From: an uncultured delta proteobacterium | Lineage (GTDB): Bacteria > Desulfobacterota > Binatia > Binatales > Binataceae | NCBI GenBank assembly: GCA_963836955.1 | Contig: CAWILO010000004.1 | Location: forward strand, 152,916-216,915 | Direction: 5' to 3' | Length of the DNA: 64,000 bases | Shown here: positions 8,266-46,728 of the stretch, in pieces | Numbering within the stretch: position 1 is the stretch's first letter | Layout: each line of letters opens with the position of its first letter | Notes under the pieces: generated by a model | The model's input: the letters and a program-made list of their open reading frames with translations, nothing else | What the model was told of the DNA's origin: nothing | Databases searched by the model: none | Translations under genes and position numbers: made by a program

Positions 8266-8364
8266 CTTAGCGCGCGAGGACGCAAGCCGCAGGCTTTTCT
8301 CCCTGTGGATGAGCCGGCCCAGGCCACTCCCCTCAACTTTGCTAGAATGCAATTATCGTCCCAC

Positions 8365-9351
8365 ATGAACACTGCGATCGTGACGGGCGCCAACGCCGGT
8401 TTGGGCTTCGAGTGTGCCCGGGCGCTCGCGGACACTAACGACTGGCACGTGGTCATTGCCTGTCGGAGTCCGGAAAAAGGGCGCGAGGCGGTCAAGCGGC
8501 TCTTCGCGCAAACCTGGTACAAAGGCATCGAAGCGATGACGCTCGATCTCGCCTCGCTCGAGTCGGTGCGAAACTTCGCGCGCGACTACGCCGCCGAACG
8601 CCGGCCTCCCCTGCGAGCCATCGTATGCAATGCGGCGACGCAAATCGTGACCGGCAGAACCTACACGGCGGACGGCTTCGAAACCACTTTCGCAGTCAAC
8701 CATCTGGCGCATTTCCTGTTGGTCAACCTGATGCTCGCGCAGATGACGCCGCCCGCGCGCATCGTCGTCGTGAGCAGCGGTACCCACGATCCGAAACAGA
8801 CGACGGGGATGCCCCCGCCGGTGTACAAATCGGCGAGATTGCTCGCGCTGCCTGACGAAGATCCCCAACCGCTCGATGACCCGCGCGGGACCGCGGGCCG
8901 GCGCGCATACACGACCTCGAAGCTGTGCAACGTCTTGTTCACCTACGAACTCGACCGCAGGTTGCGCGCCGAAAGGAGCGTTGGTACGAGCGGACAGTCG
9001 ATTACCGTCAATGCATTCGATCCCGGCCTGATGCCGGGGACCGGGCTTGCGCGCGACTACGGCAGGCTCGCGAGATTTGCATGGCGCTTCGTGTTGCCGA
9101 TCCTTCGTCCGTTCGTGCCCAACGTGAACAGCGTCGCGCGTTCAGGCAGATCGCTCGCGAACATGGTGATCGAACCGAGATTCGAGCGCATCTCGGGGAA
9201 ATATTTCCAGGGCACGCGCGACATACCGTCGTCAAAGGATTCGTACGATCCCGTCATGGCGTCGGGCTTATGGGAGGCGAGCGCCGCGATGGTCAAGCTG
9301 ACGCCGTCGGAGACGATTCTGAAGCTCAGATCAGCTCCCTCGGCAGCATAA
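8365..9351 (+). CDS. SDR family oxidoreductase, light-dependent protochlorophyllide reductase (LPOR)-like
   Basis: MNTAIVTGANAGLG Rossmann motif. WHVVIACR, LRAIVCNAA, VNHLAHFLLVNLML and YTTSKLCNVLFTYELDRR blocks match LPOR-type SDRs, including an LPOR-length insertion loop. This is the real part of the chimeric + ORF 6826..9351. Confidence 0.75.
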   Translation: MNTAIVTGANAGLGFECARALADTNDWHVVIACRSPEKGREAVKRLFAQTWYKGIEAMTLDLASLESVRNFARDYAAERRPPLRAIVCNAATQIVTGRTYTADGFETTFAVNHLAHFLLVNLMLAQMTPPARIVVVSSGTHDPKQTTGMPPPVYKSARLLALPDEDPQPLDDPRGTAGRRAYTTSKLCNVLFTYELDRRLRAERSVGTSGQSITVNAFDPGLMPGTGLARDYGRLARFAWRFVLPILRPFVPNVNSVARSGRSLANMVIEPRFERISGKYFQGTRDIPSSKDSYDPVMASGLWEASAAMVKLTPSETILKLRSAPSAA

Positions 9352-9571
9352 TTGGTATCGCGGAATACATATCTAATAGTATTTCTCAGTTGATTATACT
9401 TAACTCGCATTGACATTAGTAAATTACTAGCTCAAACTATAGAAAGTCAGTATCGATATAAGAGTCGAGTCCCGACTTGATCCAGCCCGACAGTGGCCCT
9501 TCCGCTCGCCTTTGACCACGTTCTGCTAGACCAACGCCCTTAGTACGATCGCAAGGCTTGAGGAAGCCCGC

Positions 9572-10054
9572 ATGGCACCACCTCGCCAGACTTTTCGCAC
9601 CAATCGCGATCGCATCACGACAAATGCAAGCGATGATTCCAGGTTTGCGGGCGTCGACTGGATGCGAATGATCAATCGAACGCCGGATCTGTCCGCCGGT
9701 GCGGATAAATTGAGCCTTCTCGTCGGATTGACCGCGGGCCTCGCGTATTCCACCTTTGCGAGCTTTGTCGCCAACGCGCTCACTCCCGTCAGCGGCTACC
9801 TCCTCGAAACTGCACCGTTCAGCCGTGCGGTATCCGGCCGCTACCAGGAAGTCTTCAGTCTCGACGGCGCCATCCCGACCGTGGTCGGGTCGCTGATCGT
9901 CTTCGTCCTCGTTTGGTGGATGATGCGAGTGATACTCGACAGTTGGCAGCGCGAAGATTGGGGGCGCATCGGTGCATTGGACCGCAGCTTATCAGACGGA
10001 CCGTTGCTCGTACCTGTGATAGGAGAGCCGATTGCCTCGGTATTGAATAAATAA
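9572..10054 (+). CDS. hypothetical membrane protein
   Basis: 160-aa ORF with two hydrophobic segments. It follows a 130-bp AT-rich segment. No recognisable family. Confidence 0.35.
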   Translation: MAPPRQTFRTNRDRITTNASDDSRFAGVDWMRMINRTPDLSAGADKLSLLVGLTAGLAYSTFASFVANALTPVSGYLLETAPFSRAVSGRYQEVFSLDGAIPTVVGSLIVFVLVWWMMRVILDSWQREDWGRIGALDRSLSDGPLLVPVIGEPIASVLNK

Positions 10055-10102
10055 ACTTGTCGCATCTCGAAATCTTCAGTTAACTAGTAGGAGTAATGAC
10101 TA

Positions 10103-17911: not shown

Positions 17912-17954
17912 CTTCTTTCTCCCGATTGAGATAATAGCGAACTCGCCCTCTTAG

Positions 17955-18105
17955 GAGGCTCTGCGTAACCGGCCCGGCCGTCTGTCTCCTCGCCTGTTAG
18001 GGCGAGAATGAAGGTGCGGGTCCTTGTGCAGCGCGCTCTTTTCCGCGCGATTCAGGATTCTGCCTCCGCTCTGAACACGCACGCCCGGGTTACCCAAAGC
18101 TCTGC
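17955..18105 (+). repeat. copy A of ~175-bp structured intergenic repeat (MITE/REP-like)
   Basis: About 85% identical to the reverse complement of 37936..38112. Shares the internal hairpin CTCGCC(C)TGTTAGGGCGAG and the GAAGGTG(C/A)GGGTCCTTGT block. Confidence 0.6.
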
Positions 18106-18123
18106 TCTAAGGGATCATTTCCA

Positions 18124-18906
18124 TCACACTGATTGCGAAGGCTTCCTCGCGGTCACGGTGCGCGCAGGAGGAAACGTCCAGAAACTGAGACCGGAGATTT
18201 CCACATCGATCATATCCGACTTGCGCAACTCGTCGGCGTAGAGGTCGGCGCCATGGAGGTCGGAAATCGCCACCTGGCCGCCTTGCTTGAGGGTGCGCAC
18301 GATTTCACGGATGGCTTCGCGGCGTCCTTCGCCGCTGGTAATGTTGTGGATGGCGAAGTGTGCGACGGTGGCGTCGAAACTGCCGTCGGCGAAGGGCATT
18401 TTGCGCATGTCGCCGTCATCAACGCTGACTCGCTGCGCGACTCCCTCCAGCGCGGCATTTCTTAGCGTGGCTTCACGCGAATTGTCCGACTGCTGCCACT
18501 GCGACCACAGATCGATGCCTACCGCGCGACCTCGCGGCACCAGCTTTGCCGCGGCGATGAGCAGGAGCCCGTGCCCACAACCGACATCGAGCACGGTTTC
18601 GTCTCCGCGGAGCTTCAAGCGCGCCAGGATACGGTCGCGTGCGTGGAGTTTACCGAAGCGACTGCTGGCGAACATGAGAGTCGCGAGGATCAAAAAGCAA
18701 AAGCCAGAAATTTGAAGCGTGTAAGCCAGGCCGAGGTGCCGGCTCGAAGTCCATACGAGAACGAAACCAATGATCGCTCCCGCGAGGCCGAGGACGAACA
18801 TCGCGTAAACGGCTGCACCCGCATCGAGACCATAGTCCGGCGCTTGTCTGCTCATGACCCTGCTACCTGCTTGTGTGGACATCGTCGTGACTTGCGTTTT
18901 CATCAT
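18124..18906 (-). CDS. membrane-anchored class I SAM-dependent methyltransferase
   Basis: Two N-terminal TM helices, then VLDVGCGHGLL motif I and a DxHG-containing fold. 260 aa. Confidence 0.7.
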   Translation of the reverse strand: MMKTQVTTMSTQAGSRVMSRQAPDYGLDAGAAVYAMFVLGLAGAIIGFVLVWTSSRHLGLAYTLQISGFCFLILATLMFASSRFGKLHARDRILARLKLRGDETVLDVGCGHGLLLIAAAKLVPRGRAVGIDLWSQWQQSDNSREATLRNAALEGVAQRVSVDDGDMRKMPFADGSFDATVAHFAIHNITSGEGRREAIREIVRTLKQGGQVAISDLHGADLYADELRKSDMIDVEISGLSFWTFPPARTVTARKPSQSV

Positions 18907-19724: not shown

Positions 19725-20159
19725 TTGGCTCCCTTAAATCCGCCGATAAAGTTGCTCGAACGCACCCGCTGGAAAGATCGGGACACGTTCGCGAGTCTCA
19801 TCAAGGCCAATCTCGGCAAAATAAAAGCTCGCCAACTAATCATTTCTGCCGAGCACGTTCCGGGGTTGATCGACAAGATAGCAGATCACCTTGACGACAC
19901 TATGGAACCCGGAGCGGAGTTTCAGTTGGATGCATACCAACCACCGCGCGAAACAACGAAGAGGAAGCGCAAACCTTCATCTAGGGTCCCTAGGGGGACA
20001 GCAAAGTTATGGAAACAACTTGTTGCCAGCGAGGAACAAGCGCGCATTGAAATACGCGTTTTCACAAAAGGGAAGGCCTTCACACTCTTTTTCGAGCCGA
20101 TCAAAGCGGACGATGAACTCGAAAACGCGTTCTGGAAGGACGAGTTCGGAGACGGATGA
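19725..20159 (+). CDS. hypothetical protein (first gene of low-GC islet operon)
   Basis: 144-aa ORF in a ~50% GC stretch, tightly followed by the paralog array. No family recognised and no obvious SD. Confidence 0.4.
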   Translation: MAPLNPPIKLLERTRWKDRDTFASLIKANLGKIKARQLIISAEHVPGLIDKIADHLDDTMEPGAEFQLDAYQPPRETTKRKRKPSSRVPRGTAKLWKQLVASEEQARIEIRVFTKGKAFTLFFEPIKADDELENAFWKDEFGDG

Positions 20160-20170
20160 ATCGTAGGTCG

Positions 20171-20536
20171 ATGAATCTTAGCCACGCAGCCGCGCTCGCG
20201 CTTGTGGGCTGGTACTTGATGGTGCCGCCGATGGCGCATAAAGAAGACTGGCAACTAGGCGGTCCTCGTGGGCCGGAAAGAGCCCCGTTGAGCAAATGGT
20301 TTACCTACGATTGGTTTGACACCGCTGACGCATGTACGAAGGCGCGCGATTCGCTCATGGCGAGGGCGTCATCCAATGCCCTCAATGACTATCATCGATG
20401 GCTGGCTGGTCGTGCCCCATCGGACGACCTACTTGGCGAATGGGACAGTACATACAGCACCGTCCTTGCGCTCAATGACGCCTACGGCCGGTCGCTGCGC
20501 ATTGCGACCGACGATCCTAGGCTCAAGGGAAAGTAG
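20171..20536 (+). CDS. small secreted protein, paralog 1 of tandem array
   Basis: MNLSHAAALALVGWYLMVPP hydrophobic leader. C-terminal ...IATDDPRLKGK shared with paralogs 2 and 3. Stop TAG lies 1 nt before the next ATG (AAGTAGGATGAA junction, repeated at each gene boundary). Confidence 0.5.
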   Translation: MNLSHAAALALVGWYLMVPPMAHKEDWQLGGPRGPERAPLSKWFTYDWFDTADACTKARDSLMARASSNALNDYHRWLAGRAPSDDLLGEWDSTYSTVLALNDAYGRSLRIATDDPRLKGK

Positions 20537-20537
20537 G

Positions 20538-20909
20538 ATGAATCTCCGCCACGCCGCCGCGCTCGCGCTCGCAGGCTGGTATCTTGTCACTCCCCATGCT
20601 TTGCCGTCCTCACGTGAACCAAATCTCTCTTTACCGCTATCACAATGGTCGCGGTTCGGACCCGTGCCGTCGAAAAGTGATTGCGAAGCCAGACTTTCGG
20701 CGTCGATGCAAAAGAACGATGATCCGACGATTCGCGAGAAGCTCTTTAAGGAGCAGCTGCCAAGCGTACGTGCTGAATTGCGGAGTATGTCGCCGAACCA
20801 GAAAATGCCCGACAGTTACTACGACAAAGCATACTTTGATGATTTACATCGTTACTTAAAACTTTCGCAGTGCATCGCAAGCGACGATCCGCGCCTCAAG
20901 GAAAAGTAG
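20538..20909 (+). CDS. small secreted protein, paralog 2 of tandem array
   Basis: MNLRHAAALALAGWYLV leader. Two Cys (SKSDCEAR, SQCIASDDPRLKEK). The same junction sequence leads into paralog 3. Confidence 0.5.
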   Translation: MNLRHAAALALAGWYLVTPHALPSSREPNLSLPLSQWSRFGPVPSKSDCEARLSASMQKNDDPTIREKLFKEQLPSVRAELRSMSPNQKMPDSYYDKAYFDDLHRYLKLSQCIASDDPRLKEK

Positions 20910-20968
20910 GATGAACCTACGCGCTGCCGCGCTCGCGCTCGTGGGCTGGTATCTGATGTCGCCCCTAG

Positions 20969-23351: not shown

Positions 23352-23354
23352 CGG

Positions 23355-23450
23355 ATCAGGCTGGGGGTGTGCTTTATACGCACTGAGAGCTCCCTCGGGA
23401 GAACCCCTCGAACCTGATCCGGGTAATGCCGGCGTAGGGAAGCCAACGGC
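23355..23450 (+). promoter_or_regulatory. TPP (thiamine pyrophosphate) riboswitch / THI element
   Basis: GGCUGGGGGUG...CUGAGAG...ACCC..GAACCUGAUCCGGGUAAUGCCGGCGUAGGGAAG matches the THI-box consensus. It is followed by the hairpin CCGCTTCCCC-ACACCA-GGGAAGCGG overlapping the thiS RBS region. Confidence 0.85.
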
Positions 23451-23506
23451 GCAACGTTCGCGGCTGCGCCTGGGCCGCTTCCCCACACCAGGGAAGCGGC
23501 TCAATA

Positions 23507-31670: not shown

Positions 31671-31747
31671 TGGTCGGGGTGGCCGGATTTGAACCGGCGA
31701 CCACTCGCACCCCAAGCGAGTGCGCTACCAGTCTGCGCCACACCCCG
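31671..31747 (-). tRNA. tRNA-Pro (anticodon GGG)
   Basis: Minus-strand sequence CGGGGTGTGGCGCAGACTGGTAGCGCACTCGCTTGGGGTGCGAGTGGTCGCCGGTTCAAATCCGGCCACCCCGACCA. It has a 7-bp acceptor stem and an anticodon loop UUGGGGU (G37 typical of Pro). GTTCAAATCC T-loop and encoded CCA. Confidence 0.85.
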
Positions 31748-37073: not shown

Positions 37074-37915
37074 TCGTAATTACCTCGCCGGACGAGATGA
37101 CTCGCTACTCCGAGTGCGCTCGCCTGAGCCGCGAGCGAATCGCGCTGGTGCCCACGATGGGCTATCTGCACGACGGACATCTGACGCTGATGCGCGAAGG
37201 CCGGCGTCAATCGTCAACCTTAGTAGCGTCCATCTTCGTCAATCCCACCCAGTTCGGCCCCGGCGAGGACTTCGCGAGCTATCCGCGCAACTTCGAGCGC
37301 GACTGCGCGATGCTCGAGACGGTGTCGGTGGACGTGGTCTTCGCGCCCGAGCCGACTGCGATGTACTCGCCCGACGCGCAGAGCTGGGTCGACGCCGGCG
37401 ACATCACGAGCGGACTCTGCGGAGCGCATCGCCCGGGACATTTCCGCGGCGTCACGACGGTCGTCGCCAAGCTGTTCAATATCGTCAAACCGCATCTGGC
37501 GGTTTTCGGCGAGAAGGATTTTCAGCAGTTGCGCGCGATCCAGAAGATGGTCCGTGATCTGAACTTCGACGTTGAAATTATGCCGGTGCCGATCGTGCGC
37601 GAGAAAGACGGTCTCGCGATGAGTTCGCGCAACGCTTACCTGTCGCCAACGGAGCGTGAAGACGCACTCGCGCTGAGCCTCGCAATCCGCGCGGCCCGCG
37701 AGAAACATCGCGCGGACCCATGCTGCGCCGAAGAAATAGTGTTCGCCGCAAGCCGAGTGCTCAAGCGGATGAAAGGCATCGAGATCGAATACGTAGAAGC
37801 GGTGGACGCCGAAACGCTAGCGCGTCATCCGTCGCTCGACCGCCCAATCCTGATCGCAATCGCAGCCCGCGTCGGCAAGACGCGACTTATCGATAATGTA
37901 GTGCTCAACCCGTAG
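37070..37915 (+). CDS. panC: pantoate--beta-alanine ligase
   Basis: VPTMGYLHDGHLTLM HIGH-type motif. Start overlaps the panB stop (ATGA). Confidence 0.9.
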   Translation: MIVITSPDEMTRYSECARLSRERIALVPTMGYLHDGHLTLMREGRRQSSTLVASIFVNPTQFGPGEDFASYPRNFERDCAMLETVSVDVVFAPEPTAMYSPDAQSWVDAGDITSGLCGAHRPGHFRGVTTVVAKLFNIVKPHLAVFGEKDFQQLRAIQKMVRDLNFDVEIMPVPIVREKDGLAMSSRNAYLSPTEREDALALSLAIRAAREKHRADPCCAEEIVFAASRVLKRMKGIEIEYVEAVDAETLARHPSLDRPILIAIAARVGKTRLIDNVVLNP

Positions 37916-37935
37916 CCGAGACGTCCGATCCTAGC

Positions 37936-38112
37936 CTCTCCCTGATAGAGAGTTTTGCGTAACATCCGCGCAGGCGTTCGGAGCAGAGGCAGAATCCTAA
38001 ATCTCGCGCAGAATAGCGCGCTGTACAAGGACCCTCACCTTCATCCTCGCCCTAACAGGGCGAGGAGACAGACAGCCGAGCCGATTACGCAAAACGCTCC
38101 TGATAGAGAGAA
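37936..38112 (-). repeat. copy B of ~175-bp structured intergenic repeat (inverted relative to copy A)
   Basis: Ends carry TGATAGAGAG direct flanks and the 10-bp inverted repeat TTTTGCGTAA / TTACGCAAAA. Internal perfect hairpin CTCGCCC-TAACA-GGGCGAG. About 85% identical to copy A over ~150 bp. Confidence 0.6.
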
Positions 38113-38124
38113 GCCAGGAAAGAG

Positions 38125-38439
38125 CTAGGTCATCAGCAGAATCAAGAGGCCGCCGGTCACTATGAAGCCGCCGCCGAGCAGGATTCTGTCGTCGGGGACC
38201 TGCTTGAAGATAATCAGCGAAATCGTCTGCGACACTACGAAGAAGATCGCGATGTAGATTCCCATCAGGCGATTGAAATCGACGCCGCTTTGGTTGACCA
38301 GGATTCCGTAAGCGAACAGCGCGAACGCACCGGCTGCGAGCGAGTATCCGTAGCTGTGAAGTCCTATCCGGACGAGCGCATCGCCGCCGACCTCGAGCAG
38401 CGCGGCCAGCACCAGCACGGCGAGCGTCTTTAAGATCAA
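38125..38439 (-). CDS. small 4-TM membrane protein (SMR/EamA-like, ArnE/ArnF-like)
   Basis: 104 aa with four hydrophobic helices. Size and topology resemble the small multidrug resistance fold. Confidence 0.45.
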   Translation of the reverse strand: MILKTLAVLVLAALLEVGGDALVRIGLHSYGYSLAAGAFALFAYGILVNQSGVDFNRLMGIYIAIFFVVSQTISLIIFKQVPDDRILLGGGFIVTGGLLILLMT

Positions 38440-44992: not shown

Positions 44993-45469
44993 ATGGCCAA
45001 CCCGAACGGCAACGCGGCGCTGTTCTTCGATTTGGGCGGTACCCTCGTCAAACTCAACGACGAGCGCGAGATTCCGCTCGACGCAAACGGCAACATTGTA
45101 GTCGAACTGCTTCCGGGCGTGACGGAAAAGCTTCGCCCCCTGCATAACCATCTGATGTTCGTCGTGACCAACCAGGCGGGGATCACGCGCGGACGGCTGA
45201 CGGCGGAAAAAGTCGAGGCGGCTCTTCGGCAGCTCGACCATCAGCTCGGCGACATCCTCACCGCGTGGCAAGTCTGCCCGCATACCGACGACGACAAATG
45301 CGAATGCCGCAAACCCAAGGGCGGAATGATCGCAGAGCTAGCCGACCAGTACGGAGTGGACCTGGCATCGTCAACGATGGTCGGCGATCAGGAAGTCGAC
45401 AGGCTCGCAGGCGAAGCTGCAGGCGTCGCGAAGTTCGTCGCAGCCGAGGACTTCTTCGGCTGGAAGTAG
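44993..45469 (+). CDS. HAD-IIIA phosphatase, GmhB / histidinol-phosphatase-like
   Basis: FFDLGGTL motif I. Zinc-finger-like CPHTDDDKCECRKPK insert characteristic of GmhB-type D,D-heptose bisphosphate phosphatases. Confidence 0.75.
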   Translation: MANPNGNAALFFDLGGTLVKLNDEREIPLDANGNIVVELLPGVTEKLRPLHNHLMFVVTNQAGITRGRLTAEKVEAALRQLDHQLGDILTAWQVCPHTDDDKCECRKPKGGMIAELADQYGVDLASSTMVGDQEVDRLAGEAAGVAKFVAAEDFFGWK

Positions 45470-45480
45470 GGGACGGGTAG

Positions 45481-45690
45481 ATCACACTTAATGTGAAACC
45501 CGCGGTGGGTTTCACACTTCCTTGGGCAGGGGTGACCCCTGCACCCAATGACAAAAGAAAAGATGCGGGACTTCGTCCCTGTTAGAACTTTTTTGGGGCG
45601 GAGGCTTGGGTGAGGATCCGAAACTTACCTCGCCCGTTATTTTCACGAGAGAGGCGGCCGACCGCATCGCGGTCGGTAGGTGAGGGTTCC
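45481..45690 (+). other. cluster of strong hairpins / structured RNA candidate between gmhB-like and LLM genes
   Basis: Perfect 10-bp stem TGTGAAACCC-GCGG-GGGTTTCACA. Then GCAGGGG-TGA-CCCCTGC and GGGAC-TTC-GTCCC followed by a T6 tract. Then GGGTGAGG..CCTCGCCC..GGTGAGGG, which offers alternative pairings. Confidence 0.4.
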
Positions 45691-45806
45691 GAGGCTCCAG
45701 ATGCAAGTGTGCAACGTGCGTCGTCTTTTCGTTTCGTCCTTCCTTTGTCTGTCGTCTTTTTTTTGTGTCATTCTGAGCGCAGCGAATGAGCGAGGAGAAA
45801 ACAAAA

Positions 45807-46658
45807 ATGAAAATCGGATTGCTTACCCCCTTCACTGGCAAAAATGCGCATCCCGGAGAATTTGCTCGAGTCGCCGAGTCTCTCGGCTTCGAATCCATTT
45901 GGGTGCCCGAGCATCCCGCGATGCCCGCCAATCCCAAGCAGCAGTTTCCCACCGGCGGTCCGATTCCGCCCGCGTACTTCACGATGGCCGATCAGATGAT
46001 CGCGCTCGCGATGGCCGCCGCCACTACCAAGAATCTCAAACTCGCCACCGGCATCTGCCTCGTCCCGGAGCATGAGCCGCTCACTCTCGCCAAACAGTTC
46101 GCGACTCTGGACGCATACTCGGGCGGCCGTGTGCTGTTCGGGATTGGCGCGGGATGGTTGCGCGAGGAGAGCGATCTGTTCGGCGTCGATTTTCCCCATC
46201 GATGGACCGAGACTGCCGAGATAGTCTCCGCGATGCGCAAGCTGTGGACCGAGGACCAGGCATCGTTCGAGGGCAAGTACGTAAAGTTCCCGCCAGTGAA
46301 ATCGCTGCCGAAACCCGCGCAGAAATCGGGACCGCCCGTGCTGATCGGCAGCCTCGACAAGAACGCGCTCAAGCGCGTGGCGAAGTGGGCCGACGGATGG
46401 TGTCCTATCGCACTCAACGCCTCGCAGTTGAAGACGCGGGTCGATGAGCTCAAGCGCGAGTGCCAGGCGGTCGGCAGGAACTTCTCGGAATTGGACATCA
46501 CGATCATGGGCGGAATCCGCGGCGATCGCGCAACTGTGCAGGCCGGGCTCAAGGAATTTGCGGAAGCAGGAGCGGGTCGATTCGTCGCAGGGCTGGGAGA
46601 TCTAACGTTCGAGAGCTCAGAGGGAACGCTGAAGAAGATCGCCGCGCTGTACGTTTAG
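45807..46658 (+). CDS. LLM-class (luciferase-like) flavin/F420-dependent oxidoreductase
   Basis: GAGGAG SD 9 nt upstream of ATG (MKIGLLTPF...). Conserved TIM-barrel LLM blocks (ESIWVPEH, LGIGAGW). Confidence 0.8.
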   Translation: MKIGLLTPFTGKNAHPGEFARVAESLGFESIWVPEHPAMPANPKQQFPTGGPIPPAYFTMADQMIALAMAAATTKNLKLATGICLVPEHEPLTLAKQFATLDAYSGGRVLFGIGAGWLREESDLFGVDFPHRWTETAEIVSAMRKLWTEDQASFEGKYVKFPPVKSLPKPAQKSGPPVLIGSLDKNALKRVAKWADGWCPIALNASQLKTRVDELKRECQAVGRNFSELDITIMGGIRGDRATVQAGLKEFAEAGAGRFVAGLGDLTFESSEGTLKKIAALYV

Positions 46659-46665
46659 GGGAAAT

Positions 46666-46728
46666 CACCTCTCCCCTCGGGAGAGGTCGCGCCTCCGGCG
46701 CGGCCCCTCCCGATTGGAGAGGTGAAGA
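46666..46728. terminator. bidirectional hairpin cluster between convergent genes
   Basis: ACCTCTCC-CCTCG-GGAGAGGT, then CGCGCC-TCC-GGCGCG, with an outer CACCTCTCC...GGAGAGGTG repeat. GC-rich with no clear U-tract. Confidence 0.35.

Follow-up and report, generated by a model that had tools for sequence, protein, structure and literature searches.

Two copies of an interspersed repeat in a Binataceae contig

The window analysed here is a 64-kb stretch (positions 152,916 to 216,915 of contig CAWILO010000004.1, assembly GCA_963836955.1) from an uncultured member of the Binataceae, and two of its intergenic segments, hereafter copy A and copy B, resemble one another in opposite orientation. Copy B occupies the entire gap between two convergent genes, namely panC, whose stop codon lies at 37915, and a minus-strand gene for a 104-amino-acid membrane protein, whose stop codon lies at 38125. 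Copy A is found between the stop codon of a methyltransferase gene (18124, minus strand) and the start of a DinB-like gene (17911, minus strand). The two segments are long-form copies of a mosaic DNA repeat interspersed in the Binataceae. An earlier note on this DNA, made by a model that saw only its letters, had reported two inverted copies about 85% identical over about 150 bp. In agreement with this, alignment of 37920-38130 (plus strand) and 17930-18130 (minus strand) with MAFFT gave a mean column identity of 84%, near-gapless over ~150-190 nt, and a repeat search returned the pair as the sole long inverted repeat of this kind in the window (111 nt, 82%). A covariance model of the family recovered both copies and no third core from the 64 kb; nothing else exceeded 17 bits, and the next match, at 16.6 bits, was a palindromic hairpin read on the opposite strand. 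The features of the two copies are as follows.

37929-38119, plus strand: copy B, long form, made of terminal hairpin module, arm, core, arm and terminal hairpin module (alignment and covariance model)
37936-37952, plus strand: left terminal hairpin module, CTCTC-CCTGATA-GAGAG then TTTTGCG, inward-facing and weakly terminator-like (-5.2 kcal/mol, not beyond shuffles)
37953-37963, plus strand: left arm TTTTGCGTAAC, the terminal inverted repeat of the earlier note
37982-38073, plus strand: 92-nt conserved core of copy B (107.8 bits, E 1e-34)
38005-38020, plus strand: hairpin 1 of copy B, CGCGC-AGAATA-GCGCG, with a loop that varies in length and sequence across the family
38029-38044, plus strand: C-rich box of copy B, GGACCCTCACCTTCAT, nearly invariant (at least 90% conserved in 31 copies unselected by the search pattern)
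38045-38065, plus strand: hairpin 2 of copy B, CCTCGCCCT-AAC-AGGGCGAGG, a G:C variant of the family stem CCTCTCCCT/AGGGAGAGG
38084-38094, plus strand: right arm ATTACGCAAAA
38096-38114, minus strand: right terminal hairpin module, GCTTCTCTCTATCAGGAGC then GTTTTGCG, inward-facing
17942-18116, minus strand: copy A, long form with more degenerate ends (alignment with other long forms)
17980-18070, minus strand: core of copy A (91.5 bits, E 5e-29)
18031-18049, minus strand: hairpin 1 of copy A
18008-18023, minus strand: C-rich box of copy A, GGACCCGCACCTTCAT
17989-18006, minus strand: hairpin 2 of copy A, CTCGCC/GGCGAG, with one G deleted relative to copy B

Much of the anatomy given in the earlier note was borne out, including the 10-nt arms TTTTGCGTAA/TTACGCAAAA of copy B, its hairpin CTCGCCC-TAACA-GGGCGAG and GCGCG stem, and the degenerate ends of copy A. 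The unit length of ~175 bp holds for copy A (~175 nt) but falls short for copy B (~190 nt). Likewise, the siting of both segments close to gene 3′ ends is right for copy B, which lies between two stop codons, whereas copy A, with a gene 3′ end on one side and the 5′ end of the following gene on the other, is not purely 3′-proximal. Copy B folds far beyond its shuffled versions on both strands (z -5.6 on the plus strand, -6.2 on the minus strand), and the T:A to G:C double change in its hairpin 2 stem is found in 4 copies of the family.

In an alignment of 77 copies, the ~92-nt core reads (AGCAGAGG)CAGAATCyTGAATC, GCGCGC-loop-GCGCGC (hairpin 1), TGnAnnnn, GGACCCTCACCTTCAT (the C-rich box), CCTCTCCCT-nnn-AGGGAGAGG (hairpin 2) and then AGACAGAA or GGGAAGAAA. 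The same blocks were conserved at 90% or more in the 31 further copies retrieved without the search pattern. The two ends of the core, CAGAATC... and ...GGAGACAGAA, are not inverted repeats of each other. Pairing is 97.6% in the two hairpins, where 10 double changes stand against 0.7 in shuffles; the loop of hairpin 1 ranges from 0 to ~35 nt. The consensus has AATC before and TG after GCGCGC...GCGCGC, and TTCAT before and AGAC after CCTCTCCCT...AGGGAGAGG; neither palindrome has GTAG or CGTC at its foot. We also considered an enclosing helix around hairpin 1, predicted as UCCU/AGGA plus GAGG/CCUC on one strand and as a longer G.U-containing stem on the other. The columns of this possible helix never vary, and y, the one variable position (T 50%, C 30%, G 18%), shows no correspondence with the predicted pairing. 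Covariation supports the two hairpins only.

Arms are optional parts of the repeat. Among 107 full copies, TTTGCRTAAC was found on the left in 21 and GTTAYGCAAA on the right in 20, with both present in 7. The window copies belong to the long forms, ten of which, from unrelated loci, align across arms and terminal modules; copy B matches the long forms L040 (196 nt, 78%), L070 and L032. The TGATAGAGAG sequences that flank copy B share alignment columns with homologous small hairpins in long forms at unrelated loci, each resembling a degenerate hairpin 2, and are therefore part of the element and no target-site duplication. In copy B the terminal modules are followed by TTTTGCG and face inwards from both sides, with folding energies of -5.2 and -7.5 kcal/mol that do not go beyond shuffles. 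No T-run follows hairpin 1 or hairpin 2, and copy A has no terminator-like site. Elsewhere in the family, cores also form head-to-head or tail-to-tail doublets and tandem arrays, such as one of ~5 degenerate core units with a period of 115 nt downstream of an alpha/beta hydrolase gene (L021, 650-1250, minus strand). The same hydrolase gene also has an inverted core copy directly upstream of its start.

Distribution, mobility and genomic context of the family

The window itself matches a 588-kb contig of a soil assembly in ENA (ERZ25039605 contig_53799). A 19-nt core pattern returned 79 loci in a species-representative genome collection, 7 of them samples of one prophage region, nearly all from Candidatus Binatus/Binataceae and up to 18 in a single metagenome-assembled genome (MAG). 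A 25-nt pattern returned at least 120 metagenome stretches and three IMG/VR viral contigs. Over the 208 fetched loci, profile searches counted 281 cores that reached 40 bits; almost all come from Candidatus Binatus/Binataceae genomes, from metagenomes of soil and peat, and from a Mu-like phage, so that the window pair is clearly more than two isolated segments of background similarity. No similarity was found in cultured phages or plasmids. In Rfam, the only matches at gathering threshold in the window were a TPP riboswitch and a tRNA, and copy B had no relevant match even at E up to 10. A literature search on repeats in the Binatota found no paper. The element is a previously undescribed interspersed repeat of the Binataceae and the first repeat family defined for the Binatota. 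Three contigs that bear the element are labelled Acidobacteriaceae (L022), Acidiferrales (L045) and 'uncultured proteobacterium' (L009); mis-binning is likely, because these are short contigs in MAGs and L045 is the Binataceae Mu-like prophage region.

Flank-anchored comparisons revealed many orthologous sites with and without the element. L077 and L061 differ by an indel that coincides with the core; a CAGAA-like motif at its bounds is also present once in the empty site. Comparison of L012, L035 and L016 with L063 and L042 showed a core inserted between a stop codon and the intrinsic terminator of the same gene, and in L024 versus L028 the inserted unit includes degenerate arms. At one phage site, the core upstream of a DUF559 gene lies in opposite orientations in different phages. 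No target-site duplication of variable sequence was seen, and the comparison of filled with empty sites showed only the CAGAA-like motif common to element end and target. Core identity was 88% between orthologous filled pairs and 86% between random non-orthologous pairs, the mostly coding flanks of the orthologues being 86% identical and their remaining intergenic DNA unalignable. Since orthologous pairs are barely closer than random ones, copies of any age remain close to a single consensus, which implies purifying selection or ongoing gene conversion between copies. The repeat is polymorphic in position and held close to its consensus.

With gene calls from a crude home-made caller, 78 of 81 copies were intergenic. 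The classes of orientation relative to neighbouring genes were about equally filled (co-oriented tandem 21, anti-oriented tandem 15, convergent 18, divergent 15), and copies lie near gene 3′ ends, often at 0-35 nt, in either orientation. Single changes in the stems gave 15 G.T and 13 C.A pairs, similar counts that favour neither strand. A scan of the window copies found no sigma-70-like promoter. Because the repeat is intergenic and randomly oriented, shows equal wobble counts, has no promoter and a variable loop, and occurs in arrays and doublets, it acts as an interspersed DNA element, in the manner of repetitive extragenic palindromes (REPs) and bacterial interspersed mosaic elements (BIMEs), and not as a strand-specific RNA gene. 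The description of a REP-like or MITE-like mobile repeat (MITE, miniature inverted-repeat transposable element) in the earlier note was right in kind, as the family is multicopy, lineage-specific, intergenic and insertion-polymorphic.

Several other candidate functions were examined and set aside. Neither a sigma-54 or extracytoplasmic function (ECF)-type promoter, sought by eye, nor a sigma-70 promoter, sought by scan, fitted inside the core, and a promoter spanning hairpin 1 was rejected because the loop is too variable in length. Frames open from an ATG in the hairpin 1 loop and from a GTG on the opposite strand, but loop indels shift the frame and the starts are unconserved. The consensus of a CsrA-binding site is ACARGGA; the ACAAGGA of the core varies (ATAAGG, ATTCGG, AATCGG) in the 31 copies unselected by pattern. 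An integron attC-like site was ruled out by the dispersed copies in both orientations. The subterminal hairpins and the CAGAA at both boundaries would fit a single-strand transposon of the IS200/IS605 type, but the two hairpins do not resemble each other in sequence, and a Y1 gene was not observed.

DUF559 genes flanked by repeats in and beyond the Binataceae

Cores of the family flank genes of the DUF559 family. The IMG/VR contig L082 (UViG_3300044824_000332), a true Mu-like phage, encodes Portal_Mu, Gp27, Mor and a GH108 lysin; its DUF559 gene (PF04480, E 4e-40; 118-130 amino acids) lies between a terminase-like gene and Gp27, opposes the phage genes and has two flanking cores. Seven genome loci and several metagenome loci sample the same phage locus; the DUF559 gene is present in L082, L061, L205 and others and absent from L077, which has no core, and from L083, which has one long-form element. 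On chromosomes, core-flanked DUF559 genes were found between glyoxalase and hydrolase genes (L089, with three tandem cores upstream), pstA and a tRNA synthetase gene (L207), genes for a 945-amino-acid protein and a membrane protein (L209), and PEPCK and FtsZ genes (L214). Counting the Mu-like prophage, the gene occurs in five unrelated contexts.

Adjacency was scored on 17 DUF559 genes with at least 62% identity. A core lies -5 to 92 nt after the DUF559 stop codon in 15 of the 16 scorable cases, in sense orientation in 13, and 9-92 nt upstream of the gene in 15 of 17. Six DUF559 loci had been fetched by protein, independently of the repeat, and almost no other cores were present in them. A paralogue of 53% identity (L058) lies between inverted copies of a sister variant of the repeat, in which a GC hairpin is placed between the C-rich box and hairpin 2. 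In L209 (2783-3563), the 3′ end of the membrane protein gene is directly duplicated over 85 nt (94% identical), and the two copies bracket a 611-nt cassette of core, DUF559 gene and core; 85 nt is unusually long for a target duplication. Beside the L082 cassette (8300-10100) there is a tandem duplication of the 3′ end of Gp27 (175 nt, 82%) and the 5′ end of the terminase-like gene (196 nt, 98%), which creates a chimeric open reading frame (ORF) at 8687-9118. The DUF559 protein matched PDB entry 3HRL (E 1.5e-25) and, weakly, 3R3P (E 0.006), a 'mobile intron protein' that we take to be the catalytic domain of the homing endonuclease I-Bth0305I. DUF559 domains are very common and have no known function; no role is known for E. 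coli YcjD or for the Neisseria protein of structure 3HRL.

Distant DUF559 genes were also flanked by repeats, lineage-specific in sequence and of the same design, with a C-rich box (CCCTCACC-like) followed by a hairpin of the CCTCTCCC/GGGAGAGG type. Such repeats flank DUF559 genes in Rokubacteria and another Binatia lineage; they form inverted doublets on both sides of the gene in Sinorhizobium, lie on both sides in Sphingomonas, form upstream doublets in Azospirillum and Shinella, and occur as inverted copies on both sides in Deinococcus. In Neisseria gonorrhoeae, three copies lie within 500 nt. In E. coli K-12 (L216, NC_000913.3 1351195-1351420), the stop codon of ycjD falls inside CACCCTCTCCC-TGAAAG-AGCGAGGGGG, a hairpin of the CCCTCTCCC/GGGAGAGGG type, and a repeat copy, CCCCTCACCCTAACCCTCTCCCCAGAGGGGCGAGGGGAC, follows 160 nt downstream of the gene. 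The E. coli repeat may be the element called 'boxC'. Repeats of this sort numbered a median of 16 per genome in E. coli, 21-26 in N. gonorrhoeae and 30 in one S. meliloti record, and in three other Sinorhizobium strains the best-matching repeat copy again adjoins a DUF559 gene. With only tens of copies per genome, and with the best Sinorhizobium matches beside the gene, chance adjacency is unlikely. The rhizobial and neisserial flanking repeats are possibly identical with the published RIMEs or Sm-repeats and NIMEs, respectively. No link of DUF559 to repeats was found in the literature on DUF559, ycjD/boxC and RIME.

Origin of the repeat and its proposed enzyme

Taken together, we lean, somewhat more than evenly, towards the reading of a Binataceae mosaic DNA repeat with a constrained 92-nt core, for which a DUF559 protein is proposed as cognate enzyme. 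The specific pairing, in which a DUF559 endonuclease (Vsr-like, of the PD-(D/E)XK type) would serve this repeat as REP-associated tyrosine transposases (RAYTs) serve REPs, is suggested by sequence association and has, in our estimate, a little under an even chance of being correct. The constrained unit is the core with its two perfect hairpins and invariant C-rich box, which optional arms and extra hairpin modules extend to the long form of ~175-190 nt; cores come and go at orthologous intergenic sites and occur as singlets, tandem arrays or inverted doublets. The DUF559 nuclease would recognise the hairpin and the C-rich box and nick the DNA there, repair after the nick would copy sequence from another repeat copy, and this copying would hold all copies near one consensus. 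The cassette of DUF559 gene and repeats would move into new sites that carry a repeat or lie near one. Nicking plus repair copying seems the likeliest mode because a PD-(D/E)XK nuclease only cuts, and it would explain why the copies are homogeneous, why the cores around the gene differ in number and orientation, why the gene is found at several repeat-bearing sites and why long duplications flank it. The two copies in the window are most readily regarded as passive members occupying two intergenic spaces; their transcription together with neighbouring genes is probable, and the transcripts would fold into stable hairpins. More tentatively, DUF559 endonucleases could be the cognate enzymes of a widespread class of repeats with a C-rich box and a CCTCTCCC/GGGAGAGG-type hairpin, with the Binataceae element as one member and the repeats beside E. 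coli ycjD and of Sinorhizobium, Neisseria and Deinococcus as possible others. Nucleases and repeats would then form a second partnership like that of REPs and RAYTs, mechanistically different in that it would work by nick-induced copying between repeats and not by HUH transposition.

The REP/BIME and REPIN-RAYT systems of E. coli, Pseudomonas and Stenotrophomonas, served by Y1 HUH enzymes, are likewise short palindrome-based intergenic repeats found as singlets, inverted doublets and mosaic clusters, which persist vertically yet vary between strains. They share with the present family one small enzyme gene flanked by its own repeats, with gene clades that carry different repeat variants. RAYT genes are characteristically flanked by their own REP variants (Nunvar 2010, PMC2817692). 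Here, however, the flanked gene encodes a DUF559 PD-(D/E)XK nuclease (PF04480) and not a Y1 transposase, the conserved unit measures 92 nt compared to 20-40 nt in REPs, copies number tens per genome compared to hundreds, and the palindromes lack the GTAG or CGTC tags by which REPs are known (defined in Di Nocera 2013, PMC3733652). No Y1 (HUH) RAYT gene flanked by the repeats was found at the loci, the genomes not having been systematically searched for RAYTs. The rhizobial RIMEs and Sm-repeats, the neisserial NIMEs and the E. coli ycjD repeat, as far as these candidate names apply, share the CCCTCACC-like C-rich box with a hairpin of the CCTCTCCC/GGGAGAGG type after it, a number of tens per genome and the position beside DUF559 genes. 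Their sequences, in contrast, are lineage-specific and unalignable with the Binataceae core beyond short motifs, and the latter adds the CAGAATCyTGAATC block and the GCGCGC hairpin. Free-standing homing endonuclease genes such as that of I-Bth0305I (PDB 3R3P) resemble the DUF559 gene in a related nuclease fold (the weak match at E 0.006) and in the arrangement at the phage locus, where a small gene runs against the transcription of the structural module and is present or absent at the same site. A classical homing endonuclease is directed at one unique, conserved gene and splits its target, whereas the DUF559 gene is bracketed by intact copies of a dispersed repeat and is found in several chromosomal contexts.

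Among the alternatives, a classical MITE would be an internally deleted insertion sequence with terminal inverted repeats, moved by a DDE transposase encoded elsewhere and leaving short target-site duplications. The perfect 10-nt inverted arms of copy B and the imperfect ~45-nt inverted ends of the long form point in this direction, as do arms that co-vary between copies (GCGTAA/TTACGC versus GCATAA/TTATGC), the presence or absence of the element at orthologous sites, and its size. Bacterial MITEs such as the neisserial Correia and the enterobacterial ERIC and RU elements are also 100-190 nt long, intergenic, co-transcribed with their neighbours, strongly folding and polymorphic in presence, and the long form has imperfect inverted ends as they do. 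We nevertheless regard a MITE as very improbable: the strongest conservation lies in the asymmetric interior and not at the ends, the inverted ends are optional, with both arms in only 7 of 107 full copies, no short or variable target-site duplication was seen, the TGATAGAGAG flanks being homologous element modules, and the cleanest empty site differs by the core alone, with a CAGAA-like direct motif at its bounds. No related insertion sequence was identified, and no transposase was seen beside copies in the inspected loci, where no systematic protein search was made. The MITE anatomy proposed for the window copies is not supported for this family, whose 92-nt core has no terminal inverted repeats. 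The same note's other suggestion, a small structured RNA gene family, could mean regulatory small RNAs with their own signals or a cis-acting module of untranslated regions, with the hairpins and the C-rich, anti-Shine-Dalgarno-like segment as functional parts. It agrees with folding well beyond shuffles (z -4.5 to -6.2), compensatory changes in both hairpins, a core conserved across species and the many copies that lie 0-35 nt from stop codons or between a stop codon and its terminator. We hold it to be just as improbable, given the absence of an Rfam match at E up to 10 and of a sigma-70-like promoter, terminator-like signals limited to weak end hairpins not beyond shuffles, random orientation to both neighbours and equal wobble counts on both strands; in addition, the loop of hairpin 1 spans 0-35 nt, and an arrangement in tandem arrays or inverted doublets is what DNA repeats typically show.

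It is also conceivable, if unlikely, that the element is a module serving the host, such as an insulator or weak bidirectional terminator, a stabiliser of mRNA 3′ ends or a protein-binding site under host selection, and that its adjacency to DUF559 genes is incidental. Invariant core positions are kept at orthologous sites between species with ~14% coding divergence, elements are found far nearer to the 3′ ends of genes than to their 5′ ends, and copy B is the sole sequence between two convergent genes, with inward-facing modules of hairpin plus T-run at both ends. Such a role fits poorly with end hairpins that are weak, not beyond shuffles and missing from most copies, with copies as frequent in divergent (promoter) regions as elsewhere (15 of the 69 classified) and with the many orthologous sites that have no element; moreover, the association with DUF559 appears in too many contexts and phyla to be incidental.

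The proposal of a mosaic repeat with a DUF559 partner has to face several points that weigh against it. There is no DUF559 gene in the 64-kb window, and the link to this gene is one of association. The orientation of the flanking cores varies, being (-,+), (+,+), (+,-) or (-,-), which misfits a simple transposon with fixed ends, and two DUF559 instances have no upstream core. A PD-(D/E)XK nuclease alone cannot explain insertion at sites previously free of the repeat, and a host function, not gene conversion, could be what conserves the core at old orthologous sites. Some counts are inflated by the repeated sampling of the prophage region (7 of 79 genome loci), and the context statistics depend on the crude gene caller.

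A lineage-specific intergenic repeat is an ordinary kind of element, and what is new here is such a family in the Binatota, a widespread uncultured phylum of soil. Repeats of this kind matter to annotators as a source of spurious ORFs, misassemblies and false "sRNA" calls. No propagating enzyme is known for several classic repeat families; if DUF559 proteins and these repeats are indeed enzyme and substrate, both the domain and orphan repeat families would gain a function, and the link is directly testable in E. coli and Neisseria.

The window holds further repeats and structured elements. A solo palindrome resembling hairpin 2, CCTCTCCCCTCGGGAGAGG, lies at 46668-46686 (no strand assigned), ~10 nt past the ORF at 45786-46658. 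The region 45470-45790, after the ORF at 44993-45469, is built of other repeat families common to many Binataceae loci: it contains a ~100-nt three-hairpin unit, AATGTGAAACCCGCGGTGGGTTTCACA...GGGCAGGGGTGACCCCTGC...GCGGGACTTCGTCCC, that matches L053, L051, L047, L013, L067 and others at 81-90%, and a unit of the GTCATTCTGAGCGCAGCGAA type. At other loci, the reverse complement of the three-hairpin unit often follows the core element. A tandem of three direct repeats (20156-20951, period ~370 nt) corresponds to paralogous small ORFs with a common signal-peptide-like N-terminus (MNLxHAAALALxGWYL). The TPP riboswitch lies at 23353-23457 (plus strand, 77.6 bits) and the tRNA gene at 31674-31747 (minus strand). 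Finally, a further repeat family, CCCCTTCCC-N4-GGGAAGGGG-TTAGGGGTTAGG, adjoins cores in L011, L052, L060, L065, L069 and L081 and has the same design of box plus hairpin.

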